A stretch of 45,938 bases of DNA, filler included, from a bacterium (GTDB lineage: Bacteria > JACRDZ01 > JAQUKH01), in NCBI GenBank assembly GCA_028719205.1. It is 11 parts of 11 records of this genome, joined end to end, with 100 filler letters (N's around TTAATTAATTAA, not from the genome) between each part and the next. Parts side by side here need not be neighbours in the genome. Positions count along the whole stretch, not along the records: positions 31,477 to 34,607 come from JAQUKH010000064.1; 10 more parts are not named here. One strand, written 5' to 3'. Below, piece by piece: positions 18,211 to 34,707 of the stretch. Within the stretch, counting starts at the first letter, position 1; each line of letters starts with the position of its first letter. Made by a program: the position numbers and the translations under genes. Below the pieces are notes generated by a model. It saw nothing but the letters and a program-made list of their open reading frames with translations, was not told the DNA's origin and made no database searches.

Positions 18211-18474
18211 GGGGCTCTGTGGCCCTGCGATTTCTTAGAGGGACGTTGGAAGCCGGGTATAAATATCCGAATAAAAAATCAACTGGAAGAAAATGATTTT
18301 GTTAACTTCGATAGGGGCTATTTTAAAAAATGTGTATATGAAAACTCGTCGTTTTGGAGGCCGATTGTTTATGGTGTCTTAACGTTTACTGAAGCCTCCA
18401 TAATTGATCCACATGAACTTATGGAAGCGAATACCGCACTTGACAGAATGATAAAGGAGCAAAATAAAAAATAA
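18211..18474 (+). CDS. Tail assembly chaperone C-terminal (T-like) reading frame, partial
   Basis: Not in the ORF track. The open frame 18211-18474 ends ...FWRPIVYGVLTFTEASIIDPHELMEANTALDRMIKEQNKK*, and its TAA overlaps the tape-measure ATG. An overlapping frame (18213-18296) reads ...VALRFLRGTLEAGYKYPNKKSTGRK*. Confidence 0.65.
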   Translation, partial: GALWPCDFLEGRWKPGINIRIKNQLEENDFVNFDRGYFKKCVYENSSFWRPIVYGVLTFTEASIIDPHELMEANTALDRMIKEQNKK

Positions 18475-20000
18475 TGCCGGGTGCGCTTAGATCAATATAC
18501 GGAGAAATTAAACTTAAGGACGGTGCATCCGGCGCGCTTAAATCATTCAAGCGTTCGATGGATGAAGCAAGAAATACCGCCTTTAACCTTAACAATGTTC
18601 TGAGTCTTGTAGGCGGTGCCGCCGCTACTGCGGGAATATATAAAATAGGAAAAATGTTTTCTGATGCAGGAGCCGAAGAGGAAACTCAGGCATTACGGAT
18701 CAAACATCTTGCCGGGACGGGTTACCCAGAATTAAAAAAATCAATTGAAAGTGCTGTTGAATCGAGCAAGGGGCTATTCGGAGAAAGTGATTTCGAAAAA
18801 TCAGCCAATGAAGCGTTGAAATTCGGCGCCTCTGTTTCTCTTGTTTCAAATAATCTTGGAAACCTTCAAAAACTTTCCGCTATTACCGGCGATGATCTTA
18901 CTACAACCATGCAGGGGATCACGACTGCCGTTAATACCGGGTCAATACGATTTTTAAAAAGTAACGCAATACTTGCCCAGCACATGGAGGGATTTAAAGC
19001 CCTGGGTGGTGGATATGATGAGGCGACGAAAAAACGGCGCGAGTTATATCTTACCGAGGTTTTCAAAAAAGAAGAATTGAAACTAATGGAACAATACGGG
19101 GAAGTTCTTGAAACCATGTCGGGGGCGACCAGACGAGCGAAAACACAATGGGAAGAAATAAAAGAGGTTATGGGGGGATTTTTAAACAAGGCACTTCGTC
19201 CTATTATTTCAACCGCTGCTGATATTATGCAATGGTTCGCTGGGACAGAACGCGGTGTTGCAGTTTTAAAAACTATTACTATAGCCCTTGTCCCTGTTAT
19301 TGGAATTTTGCTGGTAGCTGCTTTATATGCAGCTGCGACTGCTGCATGGGCGTTTGTCGCGCCTTTATTACCGTTTATCGCAATTGGATTAGCAGTGGTT
19401 GCAGTTATTACGTCGATTGTTTTGATAATTGAAGATTTATATACATGGTTTACCGGCGGTGAATCTGTATTCGGACATTTTGTAAAAAAACTATTCGGAG
19501 ATATTTCATATTTAAAAAAATCTTTTATGGATTTTAAAAATTCAATAATTCAAACATTTAAAGATGTTATAAATTATATTTCCGGTATACCCGATCGAAT
19601 CGTTGATTTTTTTAAATCTCTTCCGGGAAGACTCAAAGAAACATTGATTGAAATAAAAGATAGTTTTAAAAATTTATTTTCCAGTAATGATAAAGAATCC
19701 CAAGAAGTTGCCAAACAAAATTCCAGTAATATTCCTGGGCGAGCTCGCGGGGGTCGTGTCTCAAGAGGAAGCGCGTATATTGTCGGTGAAAAAGGCCCGG
19801 AAACATTTATACCGGGAGAGTCTGGAAAAATTATACCTAACGGAGGCGGGGTAACGATTGGTAGTATTGTCGGATCAATGACGTTTAATGTATCAGGTCC
19901 GGCAGAGGCTGCACAAGAAGTTAAAAACGCTGTTATGGACGCACTTGATGAATTGTCACGAACAGTGTTTAGAACTGAACTAGGAATGAGTAACGCATAA
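18474..20000 (+). CDS. Phage tail tape measure protein
   Basis: Helical Ala/Gly-rich protein, central TM-like stretch with IEDLYTWFTGGESVFG, RARGG.V......VGEKGPE.F.P motif; position in module. Confidence 0.88.
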   Translation: MPGALRSIYGEIKLKDGASGALKSFKRSMDEARNTAFNLNNVLSLVGGAAATAGIYKIGKMFSDAGAEEETQALRIKHLAGTGYPELKKSIESAVESSKGLFGESDFEKSANEALKFGASVSLVSNNLGNLQKLSAITGDDLTTTMQGITTAVNTGSIRFLKSNAILAQHMEGFKALGGGYDEATKKRRELYLTEVFKKEELKLMEQYGEVLETMSGATRRAKTQWEEIKEVMGGFLNKALRPIISTAADIMQWFAGTERGVAVLKTITIALVPVIGILLVAALYAAATAAWAFVAPLLPFIAIGLAVVAVITSIVLIIEDLYTWFTGGESVFGHFVKKLFGDISYLKKSFMDFKNSIIQTFKDVINYISGIPDRIVDFFKSLPGRLKETLIEIKDSFKNLFSSNDKESQEVAKQNSSNIPGRARGGRVSRGSAYIVGEKGPETFIPGESGKIIPNGGGVTIGSIVGSMTFNVSGPAEAAQEVKNAVMDALDELSRTVFRTELGMSNA

Positions 20001-20581
20001 TGTATTTACCGAATTCAATTCCGACAACTATTTCAGATGCATTTATGGGAAACCATACCAGAGCATTTTTGAGCGATGGGACAAATGATTGTTTGTTTAA
20101 TGTTACCCTTGATGATTCCGAGCAGGATGCAAGTGACGTGTCTTCACATGCCATAGAGGACGGGTCTGACATTTCGGATCATGTTATCCAAAAACCGAAA
20201 GTTATAAATCTTAATATTGTTTTGTCTGACGAAAGTATAAGCAATACGACTCCAATGTCATATGCCGCTGCATTTATTGATACCATTCAAGACCGAAAGC
20301 AACTTTTGCAAAACTGGATGGATGATAAGACTATTTTAACATATCACGGGCATGATGTGGATATAGACGATGTTGTCATTGAATCTCTTTCTAGAAATCA
20401 TTCGGCAGACACAGGAAGTGGTCTTGGTCTTAGTATGACATTGGTACAAATAAATATCGCAACTTCAGAAGAAGTAATTGTAAAATTTAACACTGTTAAA
20501 AAAGCAGGGAAATCTATAACAAATAAAACAAAAAAAGACGGTGTAAAACAAAAATCTATTTTAGCGAGCATGTTTGGATGA
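20000..20581 (+). CDS. Phage baseplate / tail tube initiator (Dit-like) protein
   Basis: V.SHAIEDGSDISDHV...P motif directly after the tape measure. Confidence 0.75.
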   Translation: MYLPNSIPTTISDAFMGNHTRAFLSDGTNDCLFNVTLDDSEQDASDVSSHAIEDGSDISDHVIQKPKVINLNIVLSDESISNTTPMSYAAAFIDTIQDRKQLLQNWMDDKTILTYHGHDVDIDDVVIESLSRNHSADTGSGLGLSMTLVQINIATSEEVIVKFNTVKKAGKSITNKTKKDGVKQKSILASMFG

Positions 20582-20928
20582 AATATGAATTTGAACATCT
20601 TCCGGTAACTCCCGACGAATGCCCGATATCTAAAATTTTTACTGTTGGAGAATCGGTTTATACATATGAGTTCAGGCACAATGAAAGATTTGATTTTTAT
20701 GTATTAACAATCAAAGACGCTGAAGATAAAATATTATATATTACAAAACTTGTGTATGCCGGGTCCGTTGTACACGCTGTTGTCGAAGATCTGGAAATTG
20801 ATTATGATATTTATCCCGTTAACCTTGATGATTTATTTACGCCGTTTAAAATACAAGATCAAACAGTAAACGAGGACAATCTTGATTCTAGAGTAAGATT
20901 GTATATAGATAATGTCACAACTCTTTAA
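20578..20928 (+). CDS. Small phage baseplate protein
   Basis: 116 aa with Y.YEFRHN.R.DF motif, at the usual position between Dit-like and hub genes. Confidence 0.6.
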   Translation: MKYEFEHLPVTPDECPISKIFTVGESVYTYEFRHNERFDFYVLTIKDAEDKILYITKLVYAGSVVHAVVEDLEIDYDIYPVNLDDLFTPFKIQDQTVNEDNLDSRVRLYIDNVTTL

Positions 20929-21709
20929 GCGAACAGCAGCGGTGAACATAGGAGGACGGGAATTTAAATGCCCCCCGTTCTCGATTGAATTTGAACAGAA
21001 GGTTATAATAAACGCTCCTACGATGACGGAATGTAAATTGTATAACCCTAATAACGATACAATAAAATCAGCCGAAGGAACGAAGAAAGGGACTTACTAT
21101 GATGGGCCGCAGGTTGTAATTACTGCCGGTTATGAAGAAGAAAATGGAATATGTGTATTAGGTAAATGCTCTCATTTCGAAGTTAAACGGCATGGAGCAG
21201 ATACAATACTTGCAATGAAAATCTGGGACACTCCGACAATATGGGCAAATACAATGATTGCCACAACATATAATAATTTAAAAATATCAAGTATCATTCA
21301 GGCCATTGTCAACAAAGCAGGCTTACGATTTGATTCAATTAAAGTTGGATCTGATAAAATTTTACCAACATTTACAGCGCAATATTTTAATACTGCGTTG
21401 CAAAATTTATGCAAGGATTCCGATTCGGAATATTTTTTTAATAATGGAATTCTGACTGTTCAGAGTAAAACAAAACTGGGAACAGCAAACGCCATTTTAC
21501 TGACTCCCAAAACCGGGTTAATAGATCTACCTGAAAAAACACAAGGCGGGATAAAATTTAAAACTTTATTCTTATATAAACTCATGGGCGGGTCAATTGT
21601 GAAAATAGAATCAAATAATTACAATAGTGTTTTTAAAATTATTCACGGTAAAAAAAAGTTTTCCACATTTGGAAAAGCAGAATGTGAGTTCGAGGCGCAA
21701 GCGGTATAA
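20912..21709 (+). CDS. Phage baseplate hub protein
   Basis: F.IEF, LYNPN, ITAGY, LTPKTGLI..P motifs; position in module. Confidence 0.7.
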   Translation: MSQLFKRTAAVNIGGREFKCPPFSIEFEQKVIINAPTMTECKLYNPNNDTIKSAEGTKKGTYYDGPQVVITAGYEEENGICVLGKCSHFEVKRHGADTILAMKIWDTPTIWANTMIATTYNNLKISSIIQAIVNKAGLRFDSIKVGSDKILPTFTAQYFNTALQNLCKDSDSEYFFNNGILTVQSKTKLGTANAILLTPKTGLIDLPEKTQGGIKFKTLFLYKLMGGSIVKIESNNYNSVFKIIHGKKKFSTFGKAECEFEAQAV

Positions 21710-22329
21710 TGGATTTTTCAACATTCATAAAAGATTTTTTTGATACGTATTCAAGGCAGATACAACTTGGACTGCCGTGTAAAATAGAAAAATTCGACAA
21801 GGAAAAAATGAGAGCCGATGTTCAGCCTTTTATGAAAATAAAGAATAACATGGATGAGGAAGCCGCCTATCCAATACTTTCTAATTTGCCGGTACAGTTT
21901 ATTTATGCCGGCGGATTTTATATCCGCCCCGCATATGAACGCGGGGATAAAGTATGGGTTACGTTTTCGACTTTTGACATGTCGAACGGACTTGATGAGT
22001 ATACAAGAGCGGAAAGTAAAAAGACATTCTCGATTGAAAATGCCTGTGTATCCGGAGGGATTGCGAGTAATAAATTTTCTCCGCCTTCTGAATTCGGGAC
22101 TGAAGATGGCTTGATAATCGGAGAAGAGGGAGGAAATTCCTATCTGGTATTTTCTGATGATGGAATTACAATGAGATTTAATAAGGGCGCAACTGAGATT
22201 GCATCAGATTCAAATGGGATTAAATGCGATAGCGAGGTTACCGCAAATTATAAAATTATGCCTATTGCTTTATCGACTCATAAACATATTTTTACCGGCA
22301 TGGGCTCGGTGGGGACTCCGACATCATGA
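21709..22329 (+). CDS. Gp138-family baseplate spike (membrane-puncturing) protein
   Basis: PCKI.KFD....ADVQP, LPVQF..AGGF....GD.V.V.F, C-terminal LSTHKH (HxH apex motif). Confidence 0.82.
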   Translation: MDFSTFIKDFFDTYSRQIQLGLPCKIEKFDKEKMRADVQPFMKIKNNMDEEAAYPILSNLPVQFIYAGGFYIRPAYERGDKVWVTFSTFDMSNGLDEYTRAESKKTFSIENACVSGGIASNKFSPPSEFGTEDGLIIGEEGGNSYLVFSDDGITMRFNKGATEIASDSNGIKCDSEVTANYKIMPIALSTHKHIFTGMGSVGTPTS

Positions 22330-22679
22330 GCACCTTACAGGTAATTAAATTAGTCGGAAATGACATTTCGTTGGTTAATAACCATACGCAAACTCTAACG
22401 GATGCGGACGCGCTTGCGCAAATACTCAAAAATAAAATGTCGTTGTGGTTGGGCGAGTGGGTGCTGGACACAACGGCGGGGATCGATTGGCTGGGATTGT
22501 TCAATCAAAGAATATTTCTAGAAAAGCGCATCGTGTCTATGTTGAGAAAAGTTTTGATTGCAGATACAAGGGTTACAAAAATCAGCACTCTAGATGTTGA
22601 ATTTAAGCGAACAACGAGGGAAATAACAGTAGATTTTGAAGTGCAGACAATTTACGGCGCGGTAACGGGGAGTATATAA
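22326..22679 (+). CDS. gp25-like / DUF2634-like baseplate wedge protein
   Basis: LWLGEW.LD..AGIDW and V.TIYG motifs. Confidence 0.75.
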   Translation: MSTLQVIKLVGNDISLVNNHTQTLTDADALAQILKNKMSLWLGEWVLDTTAGIDWLGLFNQRIFLEKRIVSMLRKVLIADTRVTKISTLDVEFKRTTREITVDFEVQTIYGAVTGSI

Positions 22680-23136
22680 TGGCCTTTGGAATTACAGACG
22701 CGGGATTTATACTTAAAACACAAGATGATATATTACAAGAGCTTACTGATTTGGCGGTTCTTCCGGAATATTTCGGGCCGACTCAGGATCTGACTATATA
22801 TGACCCTGTGGGGCAGTTCTTGAATATCATGGCTAAGGCTTTATCAGATAGCTGGGAAGGATTGGAAGACGCCTATTATTCATTTTTTATTGATACGGCC
22901 GAGGGGGTTTCTCTTGACCGGGTTGTTGCTCTTGGAGGCATGACGCGTATAGGAGCACAAAAAGCAACAGTAACTATCACGGCAAGCGGAGTAAATGGAA
23001 CTACGGTTCTAGTCAGTGATGTTCTCGGCCAGACTTCCCAAGCAGTCCAATTTGAGAACATTTCAAGCGGCGTTGTCGCGTCGGGGACCGTTGATCTGAC
23101 CTTCAGAGCTGTTGTCGCAGGGGAAGCAGGGATTGT
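22679..23136 (+). CDS. Baseplate J/gp47-family protein, 3'-truncated
   Basis: MAFGITDAGF..K, P.GQ, TAEGVSLD.....G.TR..A.KA motifs. Confidence 0.85.
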
Positions 23137-23236
23137 NNNNNNNNNNNNNNNNNNNNNNNNNNNNNNNNNNNNNNNNNNNNTTAATTAATTAANNNNNNNN
23201 NNNNNNNNNNNNNNNNNNNNNNNNNNNNNNNNNNNN
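23137..23236. other. Artificial contig linker
   Basis: N44-TTAATTAATTAA-N44. Confidence 0.99.
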
Positions 23237-31376: not shown

Positions 31377-31476
31377 NNNNNNNNNNNNNNNNNNNNNNNN
31401 NNNNNNNNNNNNNNNNNNNNTTAATTAATTAANNNNNNNNNNNNNNNNNNNNNNNNNNNNNNNNNNNNNNNNNNNN
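31377..31476. other. Artificial contig linker
   Basis: N44-TTAATTAATTAA-N44. Confidence 0.99.
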
Positions 31477-32469: not shown

Positions 32470-32796
32470 ATGGCAGAAGCAAAAGGACTCAGCAAACCGG
32501 TAAAACTAAAAAAAGACCTGGCGGCATTTCTGGGAGCAACATCGCTTCCAAGAACAGAGATCACAAAGAAAATCTGGGATTACATTAAAAAGAATAAGCT
32601 TCAAACAAAGGCCAAAAACGGAAAACCTGAAAACGCGGGGAAATTTATCGTAACTGACGCAAAATTACTTACAATATTCAAGAACACAAAATCAAAGAGC
32701 GCATCAGGAAAAGTTACCGACCTCACCAATATAAAAGAAGGCCAGACAATTGATATGATGCAAATAGCATCCGTCGTCGGCGCGAACATAGAATAA
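32470..32796 (+). CDS. Stand-alone SWIB/MDM2-domain protein
   Basis: KPV.L...LAAFLG...LPRTEITKKIWDYIK.N.LQ...I..DAKL; RBS AAGGAG. Confidence 0.85.
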   Translation: MAEAKGLSKPVKLKKDLAAFLGATSLPRTEITKKIWDYIKKNKLQTKAKNGKPENAGKFIVTDAKLLTIFKNTKSKSASGKVTDLTNIKEGQTIDMMQIASVVGANIE

Positions 32797-32801
32797 TAAA
32801 T

Positions 32802-32832
32802 AAGGGGCCAGCCGTTAACGGGTTGGCCCCTT
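32802..32832. terminator. Terminator hairpin between convergent SWIB and ORF6N genes
   Basis: AAGGGGCCAGCC-GTTAACG-GGTTGGCCCCTT. Confidence 0.8.
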
Positions 32833-32849
32833 GATCTTTAACTATATTT

Positions 32850-33419
32850 TTACAGATATTTTTCAATCAAGACATCAGCTATAATATCCTTATCTTTTTT
32901 GTATTTACTTCTCTTCTCTCTTATAAATCCGATTTTCTTTGCGGGTTTTTGGGGAGATTCTAACAATTTTTTTATCGCGTCAAAAACAACTTCGAATTGA
33001 TAATCATATTTCTTTTCCATTTTTTCGATCTGTTGTCTTAAATCTTTGTAGGTTAAAAGCATTTTCCTGAGTTTCGTAAATGTTCTCATAATTTGAATAT
33101 TTACCTGAATGGCCCGTTCACTATTCAAAACACTTGAAAGCATCAAAATTCCATGTTCAGTAAATACGCGCGGTAACTTACGAGTTCCGCCCCAACTTGA
33201 TATTCCATTTTGGAACATCAAGTTTTGAATCTCATTTTTAGTCAATTGGAACATAAAATCTTCAGGAAATCGAGCTAAATTTCTACTTACTGCCTTATTT
33301 AGGTTTCCTGTAGTAATTTGATAAAGTACAGCTAACTCTTTATCAAACATCACCTTTTGCCCACGGATTATAAAAATTTTTTGTTCAATTTTTTCCTGCG
33401 AAACTATTTCATTTACCAA
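32850..33419 (-). CDS. ORF6N-domain (KilA-N-like) DNA-binding protein
   Basis: I..IRGQKVM.D..LA.LY, LN.AV.RN..RFPEDFMFQLT, WGG.RK.P..FTE.G..MLSSVLNS, C-terminal KIGF; TTG start after AGGGGTG. Confidence 0.93.
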   Translation of the reverse strand: MVNEIVSQEKIEQKIFIIRGQKVMFDKELAVLYQITTGNLNKAVSRNLARFPEDFMFQLTKNEIQNLMFQNGISSWGGTRKLPRVFTEHGILMLSSVLNSERAIQVNIQIMRTFTKLRKMLLTYKDLRQQIEKMEKKYDYQFEVVFDAIKKLLESPQKPAKKIGFIREKRSKYKKDKDIIADVLIEKYL

Positions 33420-33532
33420 ATTACACCCCTATTTTTCAAAAAACTTAATTCTTTGTTCTCTTGAAATCACAATTTGTGACTTCAAGTTTATAAACTCTTA
33501 CTTTGTAAGGTGCCAAATTGGCACCTTAAAGA
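33194..33532. repeat. Family of three related ~31-nt palindromes (33194-33224 in-gene; 33458-33488; 33502-33532)
   Basis: Minus-strand consensus TTRA-NG-T-NN-CA-AWW-TG-NN-A-YN-TYA; 10-14-bp arms around a 3-nt centre. Confidence 0.88.
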
Positions 33533-33549
33533 ACCATGATATTCTTCAT

Positions 33550-34607
33550 TTATTTCCGTGCTAAATTTACTGCTATCTCAAGCAGTTCTTCCTCGGATAT
33601 GCCTAAGTTTTGATAATTTTTATAATATTCTTCAATATATTTTTTATATTCTTCCGGTTTTATCATTTCTTCTCTTAGATCTTTTATCTTTTCAAGAAGC
33701 TTTTGTATCAGTTCATCATTTATTTCAATATTTTCTTTTTTAAGCCTTTCTTTATTCTTTTCCAGAACTGACTCCACAGCGGCGGCGCCGCTGTGCTTCC
33801 CAAAAATAAATTTATGCGTTCCGCCGACGGTCTCTTCGCGGATGAACTGGTAGATCAAGGGATTGATAAGAATACCCGCGGTATGGATACCGGACTCGTG
33901 GGCGAAAACACCTTCCCCGATTATCGGTTCATGCGCCTGGATGGGAACGCCTGAATACCGCTCCACCATCTTTCTTAATTCCACAAGCTTGTCATATTTA
34001 AAACCGGGGATATCAACCCCGTAAAGTTCTTTTAAGATCATTACAGTCAAATGCAGGGAAGTATTGCCGGCCCGTTCCCCGATACCGTTCGCGGTAATAC
34101 CGGCGTAAGTGGCCCCATGGCTCATAGCCCGCACTGTATTAAACGCGCCCATCCCGAAATCGTTATGGAAATGAGCCGTCATTGGGACACCGTCAAGGGC
34201 CTTTAACATTTTTGGCACATAAAAATCCACCGCCTCCGGCGTAAAAACTCCGCAGGTGTCGGAAAAACACATTCTCGTTCCGCCTGCCTTAACACAGGCC
34301 TTAGCCCATTCAACGCCATATTTGATATTTCCCCGGGAAGAATCTTCCGACGCGAACTCGATCCTGCTTATGCCTTTTTCTTTGGCGTATTTGATCACGT
34401 CGCAAACCATATTGGTATTTGCCTGATGATAAAAATCTAACTTGGTGTCCAGCCACTTTTCAACCGACCTTCCTTCTCTTTTCAATAATGTCTTGCCTAA
34501 TTTGTATTTTATATGCAGGTCTGAAAAAGTAGACAGGACCAGAATACTTACATCATCCGGCCTAGCCCCGATCTCAGCAAGTGTGTTAATGAAGATCGGA
34601 AGAGCGT
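33550..34607 (-). CDS. DRE-TIM metallolyase of the LeuA/homocitrate synthase family, without C-terminal regulatory domain, 5'-truncated
   Basis: SDLH, EDSSR, DTCG, HFHNDFG, NGIGERAGN, FAHESGIH, GKHSG. Confidence 0.88.
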
Positions 34608-34707
34608 NNNNNNNNNNNNNNNNNNNNNNNNNNNNNNNNNNNNNNNNNNNNTTAATTAATTAANNNNNNNNNNNNNNNNNNNNNNNNNNNNNNNNNNNNN
34701 NNNNNNN
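34608..34707. other. Artificial contig linker
   Basis: N44-TTAATTAATTAA-N44. Confidence 0.99.

Follow-up and report, generated by a model that had tools for sequence, protein, structure and literature searches.

The ORF6N locus and its palindromes

The bacterial genome assembly GCA_028719205.1 contains, on record JAQUKH010000064.1, a small gene of the ORF6N family that is accompanied by short palindromic sequences, both within its coding sequence and directly ahead of it. The locus was analysed as part of a 45,938-nucleotide stretch of DNA (“the window”), which is composed of parts of 11 records joined end to end and along which all positions are counted. The ORF6N gene follows an HMGL-like/HCS_D2 gene on the minus strand, and the stop codon of the latter is separated from the TTG start codon of the former by a gap at positions 33420–33549 (minus strand), in which two palindromes, A and B, are situated (Table 1). 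The gene product matches the PF10543 profile with a score of 108.4 bits (cut-off 27.8), its residues 13–97 being aligned with profile positions 1–86 of 86.

Table 1. Features of the ORF6N locus, in positions of the window.
Feature	Positions	Strand	Characteristics
Palindrome A	33506–33529	-	perfect 11+11 repeat around one base; hairpin with 10-bp stem and 3-nt loop
Palindrome B	33460–33486	-	12-bp stem with one coding-strand G·T pair; 3-nt loop
In-gene module	33194–33224	-	codons 66–75 (NLMFQNGISS); 13–14-bp stem with one G·T pair; 3-nt loop
Remnant of an older ORF6N copy	33444–33533	-	frame of B, with in-frame TAA; A overlaps its 5′ end
ORF6N gene	32850–33419	-	189 amino acids; TTG start; PF10543 E 2.2e-31; PDLC04856 E 9.7e-58
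HMGL-like/HCS_D2 gene	33550–34485	-	upstream of the ORF6N gene
SWIB/MDM2-domain gene	32470–32796	+	108 amino acids; convergent with ORF6N; bacterial contig
G+C-rich inverted repeat	32802–32832	n/a	between the convergent ORF6N and SWIB genes; 12-nt arms, 92% complementary

An initial annotation of the stretch, made from the sequence alone, had proposed A and B together with a similar segment inside the ORF6N gene, and their positions, sequences and centre spacing of 44 nucleotides (nt) were confirmed by an inverted-repeat search. The arms of A (33506–33516/33518–33528) are 100% complementary, those of B (33460–33472/33474–33486) 92%, and those of the in-gene copy (33194–33207/33211–33224) 93%. 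Palindrome A begins 20 nt past the HMGL-like stop codon and belongs to a module subtype reading “SLR.QFGTL”, while the centre of B, which is of the “NLKSQIVIS” subtype, is located 54 nt ahead of the ORF6N start. The translations given for them earlier, i.e., SLRCQFGTLQ preceded by NEEYHG for A and NLKSQIVISR for B, are correct.

A scaffold shared by the three copies had likewise been postulated, and within the window it is confined to these three sites. The corresponding pattern, allowing up to two mismatches, yields six matches (three sites on both strands) versus 0.16 expected in the 45.9-kb window, and a stricter version matches B and the in-gene copy versus 0.00 expected. A covariance model (R1), which was built from 93 in-gene copies of the family including that of the window but leaving out A and B, recovers both of them; in a scan of the window with filters off, the in-gene copy scores 50.2 bits, B 36.2 bits (E 1.8e-6) and A 23.6 bits (E 0.002), followed by a next-best match of 14.7 bits. 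All three copies fold far better than shuffled sequences on either strand. As coding-strand RNA, the folding energies amount to -15.3 kcal/mol for A (z -3.65; 1/200 shuffles as good), -14.4 kcal/mol for B (z -4.26; 1/200) and -18.4 kcal/mol for the in-gene copy (z -5.41; 0/200). The repeat search of the window reported no tandem repeat family, and Rfam gave no match at the palindromes, the only two matches being sub-threshold small RNA hits, both near 32762–32952.

Two further observations concern the in-gene copy. Its 5′ arm is repeated 36 nt upstream within the gene (33210–33226 and 33246–33262, 82% identity over 17 nt); the repeated arm encodes MFQ at both sites, so that the 3′ arm has a second possible partner. 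Moreover, contigs of the candidate source run stop and resume inside 33195–33223, with the records overlapping by 29 nt, and the module appears to break de Bruijn/short-read assemblies at a predictable place. In four sequencing runs searched as contigs, the depth peaks over the ORF6N domain, A and B come from ORF6N genes of other organisms; the sides of the joints between run contigs are shorter than 30 letters or of low likeness, and these joints have no bearing on cassette exchange either way.

A palindromic module in ORF6N coding sequences

The in-gene palindrome is a property of nearly every ORF6N family gene examined. A scan for relatives, with one genome per species, returned at least 593, of which the best 80 loci (47–70% protein identity) were analysed; these span Planctomycetota, Omnitrophota, Nitrospirota/Thermodesulfovibrionia, Bacteroidota, Desulfobacterota, candidate-phyla bacteria and others. 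Mapping of query residue 66 onto each tblastn match resulted in 93 gene copies from the 80 loci and the window, and in 88 of these a stem of 10–16 base pairs (bp) with a 3-nt loop is found at the same codons, at offsets of 12–18 nt (15 nt in 82 copies). Three of the non-canonical copies have their best stem displaced by extra modules (the second copies of L026 and L061, and L076), and the other two comprise a partial match (L039) and a gene in which a degenerate first module is followed by an intact one (L067). In a sample of 80 IMG/VR loci, which were not used for R1 and many of which are near-identical, the module was detected in 79 at E≤0.1 and in the 80th with filters off. It is also present in all 28 PF10543 matches of five whole genomes (12.8 Mb) and in distant family members on plasmids of Bacteroides ovatus, Sulfuricurvum kujiense and Legionella oakridgensis, and the taxa bearing it include Planctomycetota, Omnitrophota, Nitrospirota, Bacteroidota, candidate-phyla bacteria, Legionella and Sulfuricurvum. 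In the accessible portions of the literature on ORF6N, PDC-S05, RhuM or KilA-N, a description of such a module was not found.

What is maintained in this module is the complementarity of its arms. In an alignment set by the protein register, not by the hairpin, and comprising a 14-pair stem, 89.2% of the stem cells are paired, compared to 72.6% in shuffles (0/500 reach the real value) and 24–44% with slid partners. Double (compensatory) changes occur in 12 of the 14 pairs and in 215 cells; thus, the compensating pair changes that had been noticed among the three copies of the window are real and hold throughout the family. Many of the paired changes are non-synonymous, with Ser(TCA) going together with Val(GTG), Cys or Phe with Gly, and Ser(TCG) with Ala, and 10 Leu(TTG) to Trp(TGG) changes have their counterpart in 10 changes of Ser TCA to TCC. 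Since the arms remain complementary while the inner stem changes, it is either within-strand pairing or exact dyad symmetry that is preserved, and not a fixed duplex word.

The codons used at the palindrome differ from those in the remainder of the same 82 genes. Leu is encoded by TTG in 64/70 cases at the palindrome vs. 224/1305 elsewhere, Ser by TCA in 63/74 vs. 84/489 and by AGT in 44/48 vs. 111/489, and Asn by AAC in 44/51 vs. 175/480. The core sequence is, furthermore, used in two reading frames: most genes translate it as ..SQIVT.., whereas L029, L039, L077 and the second copy of L033 have ..VTNCD.. instead, and this core also occurs in the palindromes of L188 and L231. The constraint on the module, hence, acts on nucleotides and not on residues alone. 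A role of the hairpin as a stimulator of programmed frameshifting was considered and rejected, given that the preceding codon is no conserved slippery site and a spacer is missing.

The palindrome is also the least variable part of the gene among related alleles. In a group of 14 related IMG/VR loci (8 distinct sequences, 66–99.8% identical), 216 of 511 columns vary, with 1/31 palindrome columns vs. 215/480 columns elsewhere (Fisher p 6.6e-7), and the palindrome constitutes the unique minimum of the sliding-window variability, even in comparison with the rest of the conserved domain. A second allele group (37 loci, 5 distinct sequences) has 0/8 variable columns within the palindrome.

Extra copies, the encoded protein and the genomic setting

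When R1 was applied to the 80 loci (262 kb), 200 two-strand matches were obtained, corresponding to 107 sites, of which 87 are canonical, 8 are further in-gene copies, 8 lie upstream and 4 downstream. The upstream copies are at -23, -23, -26, -50, -76, -93, -156 and -543 from the expected start, and the downstream ones at +17, +18, +25 and +962 from the stop. No match at E≤1 was obtained with R1 in the 246.6 kb of 55 unrelated loci. On the scale of whole genomes, enrichment was scanned in the five genomes behind related loci; these contain 29 sites, 2–9 per genome, 28 of which lie inside a PF10543 match or no more than ~110 nt away from one; the remaining site falls in a relic whose translation corresponds to an ORF6N gene with an internal deletion. 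The enrichment near ORF6N genes that the initial annotation had anticipated is, thus, borne out, with the proviso that R1 rewards pairing, by which decayed satellites are missed.

Some apparently intact genes contain two to four modules in frame (L020, L060, L067, L076, L150); in L020 and L067, these are spaced by 45 nt, while L060 and L076 contain several. L150 (G004:C11:12400-14000, ~744–907) is an apparently intact ORF6N gene with four in-frame modules in a 1.1-Mb genome, whose loop and inner core are common to all four and whose outer stem differs. Layouts comparable to that of the window recur elsewhere. L026 and L074 each have two modules between the stop codon of the upstream gene and the ORF6N ribosome-binding site; L046 and L062, as well, have two modules upstream of the ORF6N gene; L187 has one in an upstream ORF6N relic and another just ahead of the ribosome-binding site; and in L008 a near-identical A-like module is located 41 nt ahead of the ORF6N start.

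As for the origin of B, the intergenic stretch itself gives some indications. Positions 33444–33533 match an ORF6N profile built without the window at 9.3 bits, over hidden Markov model positions 47–76. Upon shuffling of the 5′ flank of B (45–48 nt), only 1/1000 and 0/200 shuffles reach the real score, compared to 378/1000 and 99/200 for its 3′ flank, so that homology to ORF6N is restricted to the 5′ side. On account of this asymmetry, B is a gene remnant, namely a decayed piece of an ORF6N gene consisting of ~12 ORF6N-like codons plus the palindrome and ending just past the latter. The initial annotation had held that the copies would be mere decayed gene duplicates if their flanks aligned extensively with ORF6N, and this applies to the 5′ flank of B but not to the 3′ one. 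For A, the 5′-flank homology is weak (21/200 shuffles reach the score); its subtype also occurs in genes reading SLR.QFG.LK (L038, L061, L147), and A is taken to be a second remnant, of a different subtype, although homology of its flank to ORF6N could not be demonstrated. A plain DNA alignment of the intergenic stretch with the gene is marginal (score 27, reached by 15/500 shuffles), and a Pfam search with the translated stretch gave 0 families. Among 19 extragenic modules, the 5′ flank is ORF6N-like (p≤0.15) in 12 and the 3′ flank in 5, two of which are explained by a following module; the typical satellite, thus, appears to be a “5′ flank plus palindrome” unit.

A special match of A and B to the resident gene, which had been assumed, could not be corroborated. 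The resident palindrome is equalled or surpassed in its similarity to A by 75% of the non-cognate ORF6N palindromes, and in its similarity to B by 45%. When 17 testable satellites were compared with their own gene, 6 were in the top quartile (p 0.23), with L070, L035 and L008 as clear exceptions; three sites without a cognate had been dropped from this test (L067, and L076 twice), and the rows of L052 and L026 are unreliable due to a poor centre or a wrong neighbour gene. A and B are neither matched to the resident gene nor donors for programmed diversification.

Rearranged ORF6N genes were encountered in several places. The remnants in L147 (G003:C53) and L061 (1402–1623) are internal-deletion derivatives, in which the palindrome region or an AMLS motif is joined to the C-terminal ..PPEK..IGF end. 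The viral-contig alleles L163–L185 have the N-terminal domain in common and diverge strongly beyond ~+145 nt past the palindrome, which suggests that the coiled-coil half may have been exchanged at the domain border.

The encoded protein was modelled with AlphaFold2 (mean predicted local distance difference test score 77.5). The model comprises a helix-turn-helix (HTH; residues 26–46), strands, a helix (61–71), a lower-confidence loop (72–83) and a long helix (101–137), and the palindrome is predicted to encode the end of helix 61–71 together with the following surface loop, where extra modules are tolerated. The best Foldseek match is to the winged-helix-like Dachshund homology domain of Ski/Dachshund (probability 0.99, E 0.018), with MarR-type regulators being weaker; nothing was found at E≤0.001. 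No solved structure was matched by sequence, the match to the ParB HTH (4umk) being non-significant (E 0.23), and the NCBIfam search gave 0 families.

The putative link of the family to phage defence comes from the profiles of PDC-S05, a candidate defence system of PADLOC. The protein covers positions 3–175 of 177 of the PDC-S05 profile PDLC04856, as opposed to only positions 10–184 of 306 of PDLC04869 (E 2.3e-53), the longer C-terminal part of which is absent here. A PDC-S05 representative described as carrying a Virulence_RhuM domain, distinct from the protein studied here, is reported to have cut the plating of T7 and T5 on E. coli B ~1000-fold (bioRxiv 10.1101/2024.09.26.614923). A location in defence islands was not observed, the neighbours being mostly housekeeping genes both in the window and in the 80 loci. 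Adjacent to ORF6N in the 80 loci are Phage_integrase (5 loci), Y1_Tnp (2 loci; L023 and L072), HsdM (1), DNA methylase (2) and AbiEii (1) genes, and a ChlI/Mg-chelatase-like (ComM/YifB-type) gene, a known target of island insertion, adjoins ORF6N in 5/80 (L008, L011, L018, L020 and L077). A tyrosine integrase precedes the ORF6N gene in two of four plasmid regions inspected. The family is rare in phage records (5/50,697) and viral contigs (152 relatives in 2.9 million), and E. coli genomes gave no DNA match.

Within the window, the neighbours of ORF6N are housekeeping genes as well, i.e., the HMGL-like, SWIB, ribosomal L13 and phosphoglycerate mutase genes, among others. Runs of N at ~31386–31475 and ~34607–34651 interrupt an aspartokinase-like gene, the ribosomal S9 gene and the region upstream of the HMGL-like gene, because of which the HMGL-like open reading frame (ORF) is visible only from Pfam profile residue 103 onward. 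The G+C-rich repeat that separates the convergent ORF6N and SWIB genes resembles an ordinary bidirectional terminator and is not of the ORF6N module type; R1 gives no match there, and a simple terminator scan did not call it. The absence of recombinases and reverse transcriptases remarked upon initially extends to all 42 ORFs of the window that were scanned (39 of ≥100 amino acids and three around 33420–33549).

Two groundwater contigs are ~90% alike to the locus, one of which covers 33508–34181 and the other SWIB plus the 3′ part of ORF6N, with neither spanning the intergenic stretch; the SWIB–ORF6N arrangement is kept, with 71 other letters at the ORF6N stop. Of 55 relatives of the HMGL-like protein in metagenome contigs, the 22 best were examined, the closest being 70–73% identical, and in all 22, ORF6N, SWIB and L13 are absent within 2.5 kb, so that no insertion boundaries could be drawn. 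At 18474–23188 (plus strand), ~10 kb from the ORF6N gene, lies a run of phage-tail baseplate genes (Dit-like, Pam3 gp18 plug, baseplate hub gp41 and a phage-protein N-terminal domain), which represents either a tail-like particle cluster or a prophage remnant; no integrase is among the ORFs scanned.

Function of the module, rival explanations and known systems

The reading that we favour, at a rough probability of 45%, is that A and B are extragenic satellites of a ~31-nt palindromic module that belongs to ORF6N (PDC-S05-type) genes and is carried in their coding sequence. The module multiplies locally, as seen in the two to four in-frame copies of some genes, and also stays behind at gene borders as ORF6N copies decay or rearrange. 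The selected feature would be intrastrand pairing, i.e., a fold-back hairpin or cruciform, and not a fixed duplex sequence. Given that the module is obligatory in the gene and optional outside, the element presumably acts in cis on its own gene.

With regard to what reads this element, we tentatively propose, though with less than even odds, a structure-specific recognition site for the family's own winged-helix/coiled-coil protein, which might serve autoregulation or marking of the own locus. A fold-back hairpin or cruciform would be the simpler target, because a dimeric reader of duplex DNA needs no symmetry at positions that it does not read and would have to acquire a different specificity with every variant. 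At gene borders, copies like A and B might be retained in untranslated transcript ends or in the promoter region as extra sites, terminators or stabilisers, and the positions of A, 20 nt past the upstream stop, and of B, 54 nt before the start, could have kept them useful. More speculatively, and rather doubtfully, ORF6N/PDC-S05 genes may be regarded as “self-marked”, by which we mean that an obligatory fold-back element in the coding sequence would allow the product or a host factor to recognise its own gene or transcript by shape instead of sequence, with satellites arising in frame and at the borders.

Several observations weigh against such a functional interpretation. Approximately 7/8 of the ORF6N loci are without an extragenic copy and satellites are, hence, dispensable, and generic hairpins in the 150 nt before the start are only ~2-fold more frequent than in controls (12/72 vs. 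6–7/72). Both the loop and the variable stem positions of A and B depart from those of the resident palindrome, which makes a protein-matched, sequence-specific operator unlikely. Part of the arm conservation is forced by the conserved residues N, L, Q, S and S, and template switching in quasi-palindromes could keep the arms complementary without any function. On the favoured reading as well as on the RNA, recombination and functionless ones that are discussed below, A and B are by-products of ORF6N turnover at the locus.

An unlikely but still respectable alternative is that the element functions as an RNA hairpin on the ORF6N transcript, either in mRNA stability, processing or translation control or by being bound as RNA by the protein. 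This would be in agreement with pairing rather than sequence being kept, with the stability of the stems when folded as RNA, and with the near-gene copies (-23, -23, -26, -50, -76, -93; +17, +18, +25) all sharing the orientation of the gene and lying inside the likely transcript. A promoter-like site, which is a weak consensus match and no commoner than in shuffles, would have transcription begin roughly at the 5′ edge of A. However, no Rfam family was matched, a U-tract past the stems is lacking, and the terminator scan returned 0 sites. Nor are G·U pairs favoured on the coding strand. The initial annotation had seen a strand-biased wobble, which is not borne out by the family, where 27 G·U versus 50 A·C pairs are counted on the coding strand, A·C corresponding to G·U on the other strand; in the 12 core pairs, there are 16 G·U, 32 A·C and 56 other mismatches. 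The excess of A·C occurs mostly where the third base of Lys, Arg, Met or Ile codons faces the second base of Thr or Ile codons, and is, therefore, a codon effect at least in part. A missing strand preference of the mismatches fits DNA, or both strands, slightly better than sense RNA, albeit blurred by these codon effects.

Less probable again is the view that, in a small selfish or fast-turnover gene, the palindrome acts as a site of recombination or rearrangement, which would stall replication or be cut; module duplication, chimeras, arrays, truncated remnants, exchange of gene halves and occasional flank-to-gene copying would be its consequences, and we consider this scenario improbable as well. 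It would account for the in-frame chimeras, in which two to four modules of different subtypes are combined, for the tandem arrays and many pseudogene pieces seen, for the tendency of remnants to retain the 5′ flank plus palindrome and to lose what comes after, and for the occurrence of single ORF6N genes among unrelated housekeeping genes in many phyla. The orthologous loci L189 and L158 are a further example. They are 84.6% identical upstream, 97% in the upstream module window (vs. 47–73% in the neighbouring intergenic windows), 79.3% in the N-terminal coding part and 91.7% in the C-terminal part, but only 57.2% over a 166-column block starting at the palindrome, which is a block replacement and a single case; the in-gene module of L189 matches its own upstream copy at 35/45 positions, while L158 has a different one. 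A block change of the kind for which the initial annotation had suggested looking is seen in this one pair, but not in the allele groups, where the in-gene segment is invariant or nearly so. Against a general recombination site speak the facts that this is the only mosaic pair, that the ends of high-scoring segment pairs (≥88% identity) do not fall at the palindrome but cluster at +125 to +150 (the domain/coiled-coil border) and near the gene start, and that pairwise MaxChi gave no cluster at the palindrome, its peak being at the domain/coiled-coil border and reflecting rate heterogeneity. In addition, recombinases adjoin few of the 80 loci and are missing among the window ORFs scanned, and recombination alone leaves unexplained that no other part of the gene is as conserved as the palindrome.

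Comparably improbable is a functionless, self-perpetuating quasi-palindrome, in which selection on the protein fixes one arm and template-switch repair copies it to the other, A and B being neutral leftovers of dead copies whose arms are still homogenised. Both arms encode conserved residues (N-L and S-S), and each can, thus, anchor the other; A is a perfect palindrome even though its flank homology is not demonstrable; and both the lack of satellites at most loci and the lack of a strand preference among mismatch classes would be expected. Yet the module has been retained in many phyla and in two reading frames, its variability is the unique minimum even relative to the rest of the conserved domain, a 1.1-Mb genome contains it multiplied in frame, orthologous loci have kept an upstream copy, and satellites cluster at gene borders and not at random distances. 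Besides, we know of no other gene family with such a quasi-palindrome trap.

The original proposal, in which A and B serve as silent donor cassettes whose transfer into the gene would diversify a DNA-binding protein, is very improbable; while the common scaffold, variable paired positions that change residues and the L189 module resembling its upstream copy, from which the ortholog L158 differs, would suit it, related alleles show little or no variation in the in-gene module, A and B resemble the resident module no more than random members of the family do, B is a decayed gene piece with a stop codon, most loci are devoid of a flanking copy, recombinases or reverse transcriptases are missing among the scanned ORFs, and the replaced L158/L189 block runs ~165 nt past the palindrome, where the upstream copy is without homology.

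A 31-nt palindrome whose conservation exceeds that of the encoded protein suggests that genes of the ORF6N family hold a second layer of information. Should the self-marked reading be true, the module would constitute a cis-acting nucleic-acid component of a widespread single-gene anti-phage candidate, and if the palindrome matters for regulation or activity, codon-optimised or recoded synthetic genes would lose this element. Irrespective of the function, the module explains the recurring hairpin mini-arrays beside ORF6N genes and provides a natural system for cleanly distinguishing selection on DNA or RNA structure from the mutational upkeep of quasi-palindromes.

Among known systems, the nearest precedents each share one trait with the module and fail on others. 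From integron attC sites, it is set apart by a constant copy in mid-gene, by a copy after the stop in just 3/80 loci and by the lack of an integrase among the window ORFs. Type III toxin-antitoxin systems, in which the toxI repeats are near-identical direct repeats processed by an endoribonuclease toxin, resemble the locus in having an array of short structured repeats directly upstream of a small defence-associated gene. However, A and B have only a common scaffold, the key copy of the module lies inside the gene, and instead of a ToxN/AbiQ endoribonuclease, only ORF6N was detected, with a winged-helix-like fold and a long helix.

Repetitive extragenic palindromes (REPs) and bacterial interspersed mosaic elements (BIMEs) are likewise short imperfect palindromes at gene ends, possibly acting as transcript stabilisers or terminators. 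REPs number tens to hundreds per genome and have a Y1 transposase (RAYT) as a neighbour, whereas the ORF6N module occurs at 2–9 sites per genome—29 in five genomes, all linked to ORF6N—and Y1_Tnp is next to ORF6N in 2/80 loci and not found among the 42 window ORFs. Rickettsia palindromic elements are, similar to the module, hairpin-forming DNA inserted in frame at the protein surface in several copies; they are ~100–150 bp in size and spread over many unrelated genes and intergenic sites, in contrast to the ~31-nt ORF6N module, which is confined to one gene family and its borders and has a fixed codon position.

Replicons of the pT181 and phiX174 types have their origin within the initiator gene and, hence, a hairpin or cruciform site inside the coding sequence of the very protein that acts on it in cis, a relation that is putative for ORF6N. 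Their initiators are nicking enzymes and their longer hairpin loops hold the nick site, while in the ORF6N protein no nuclease or HUH domain was detected and the loop of the module is 3 nt long. Finally, palindromic sites within coding sequences are represented by parS inside parB/spo0J, by lac O2 and by gal OI, parS being situated in the gene of its own binder. These sites are read as duplexes and keep their sequence, whereas the inner stem of the ORF6N module varies and its arms stay complementary, and the ParB and ORF6N proteins are connected by sequence solely through the non-significant HTH match mentioned above, DNA binding by ORF6N being putative. What the module has in common with parS, lac O2 and gal OI is a palindrome in a coding sequence that is accompanied by further copies nearby and in which codons and site share the same bases.

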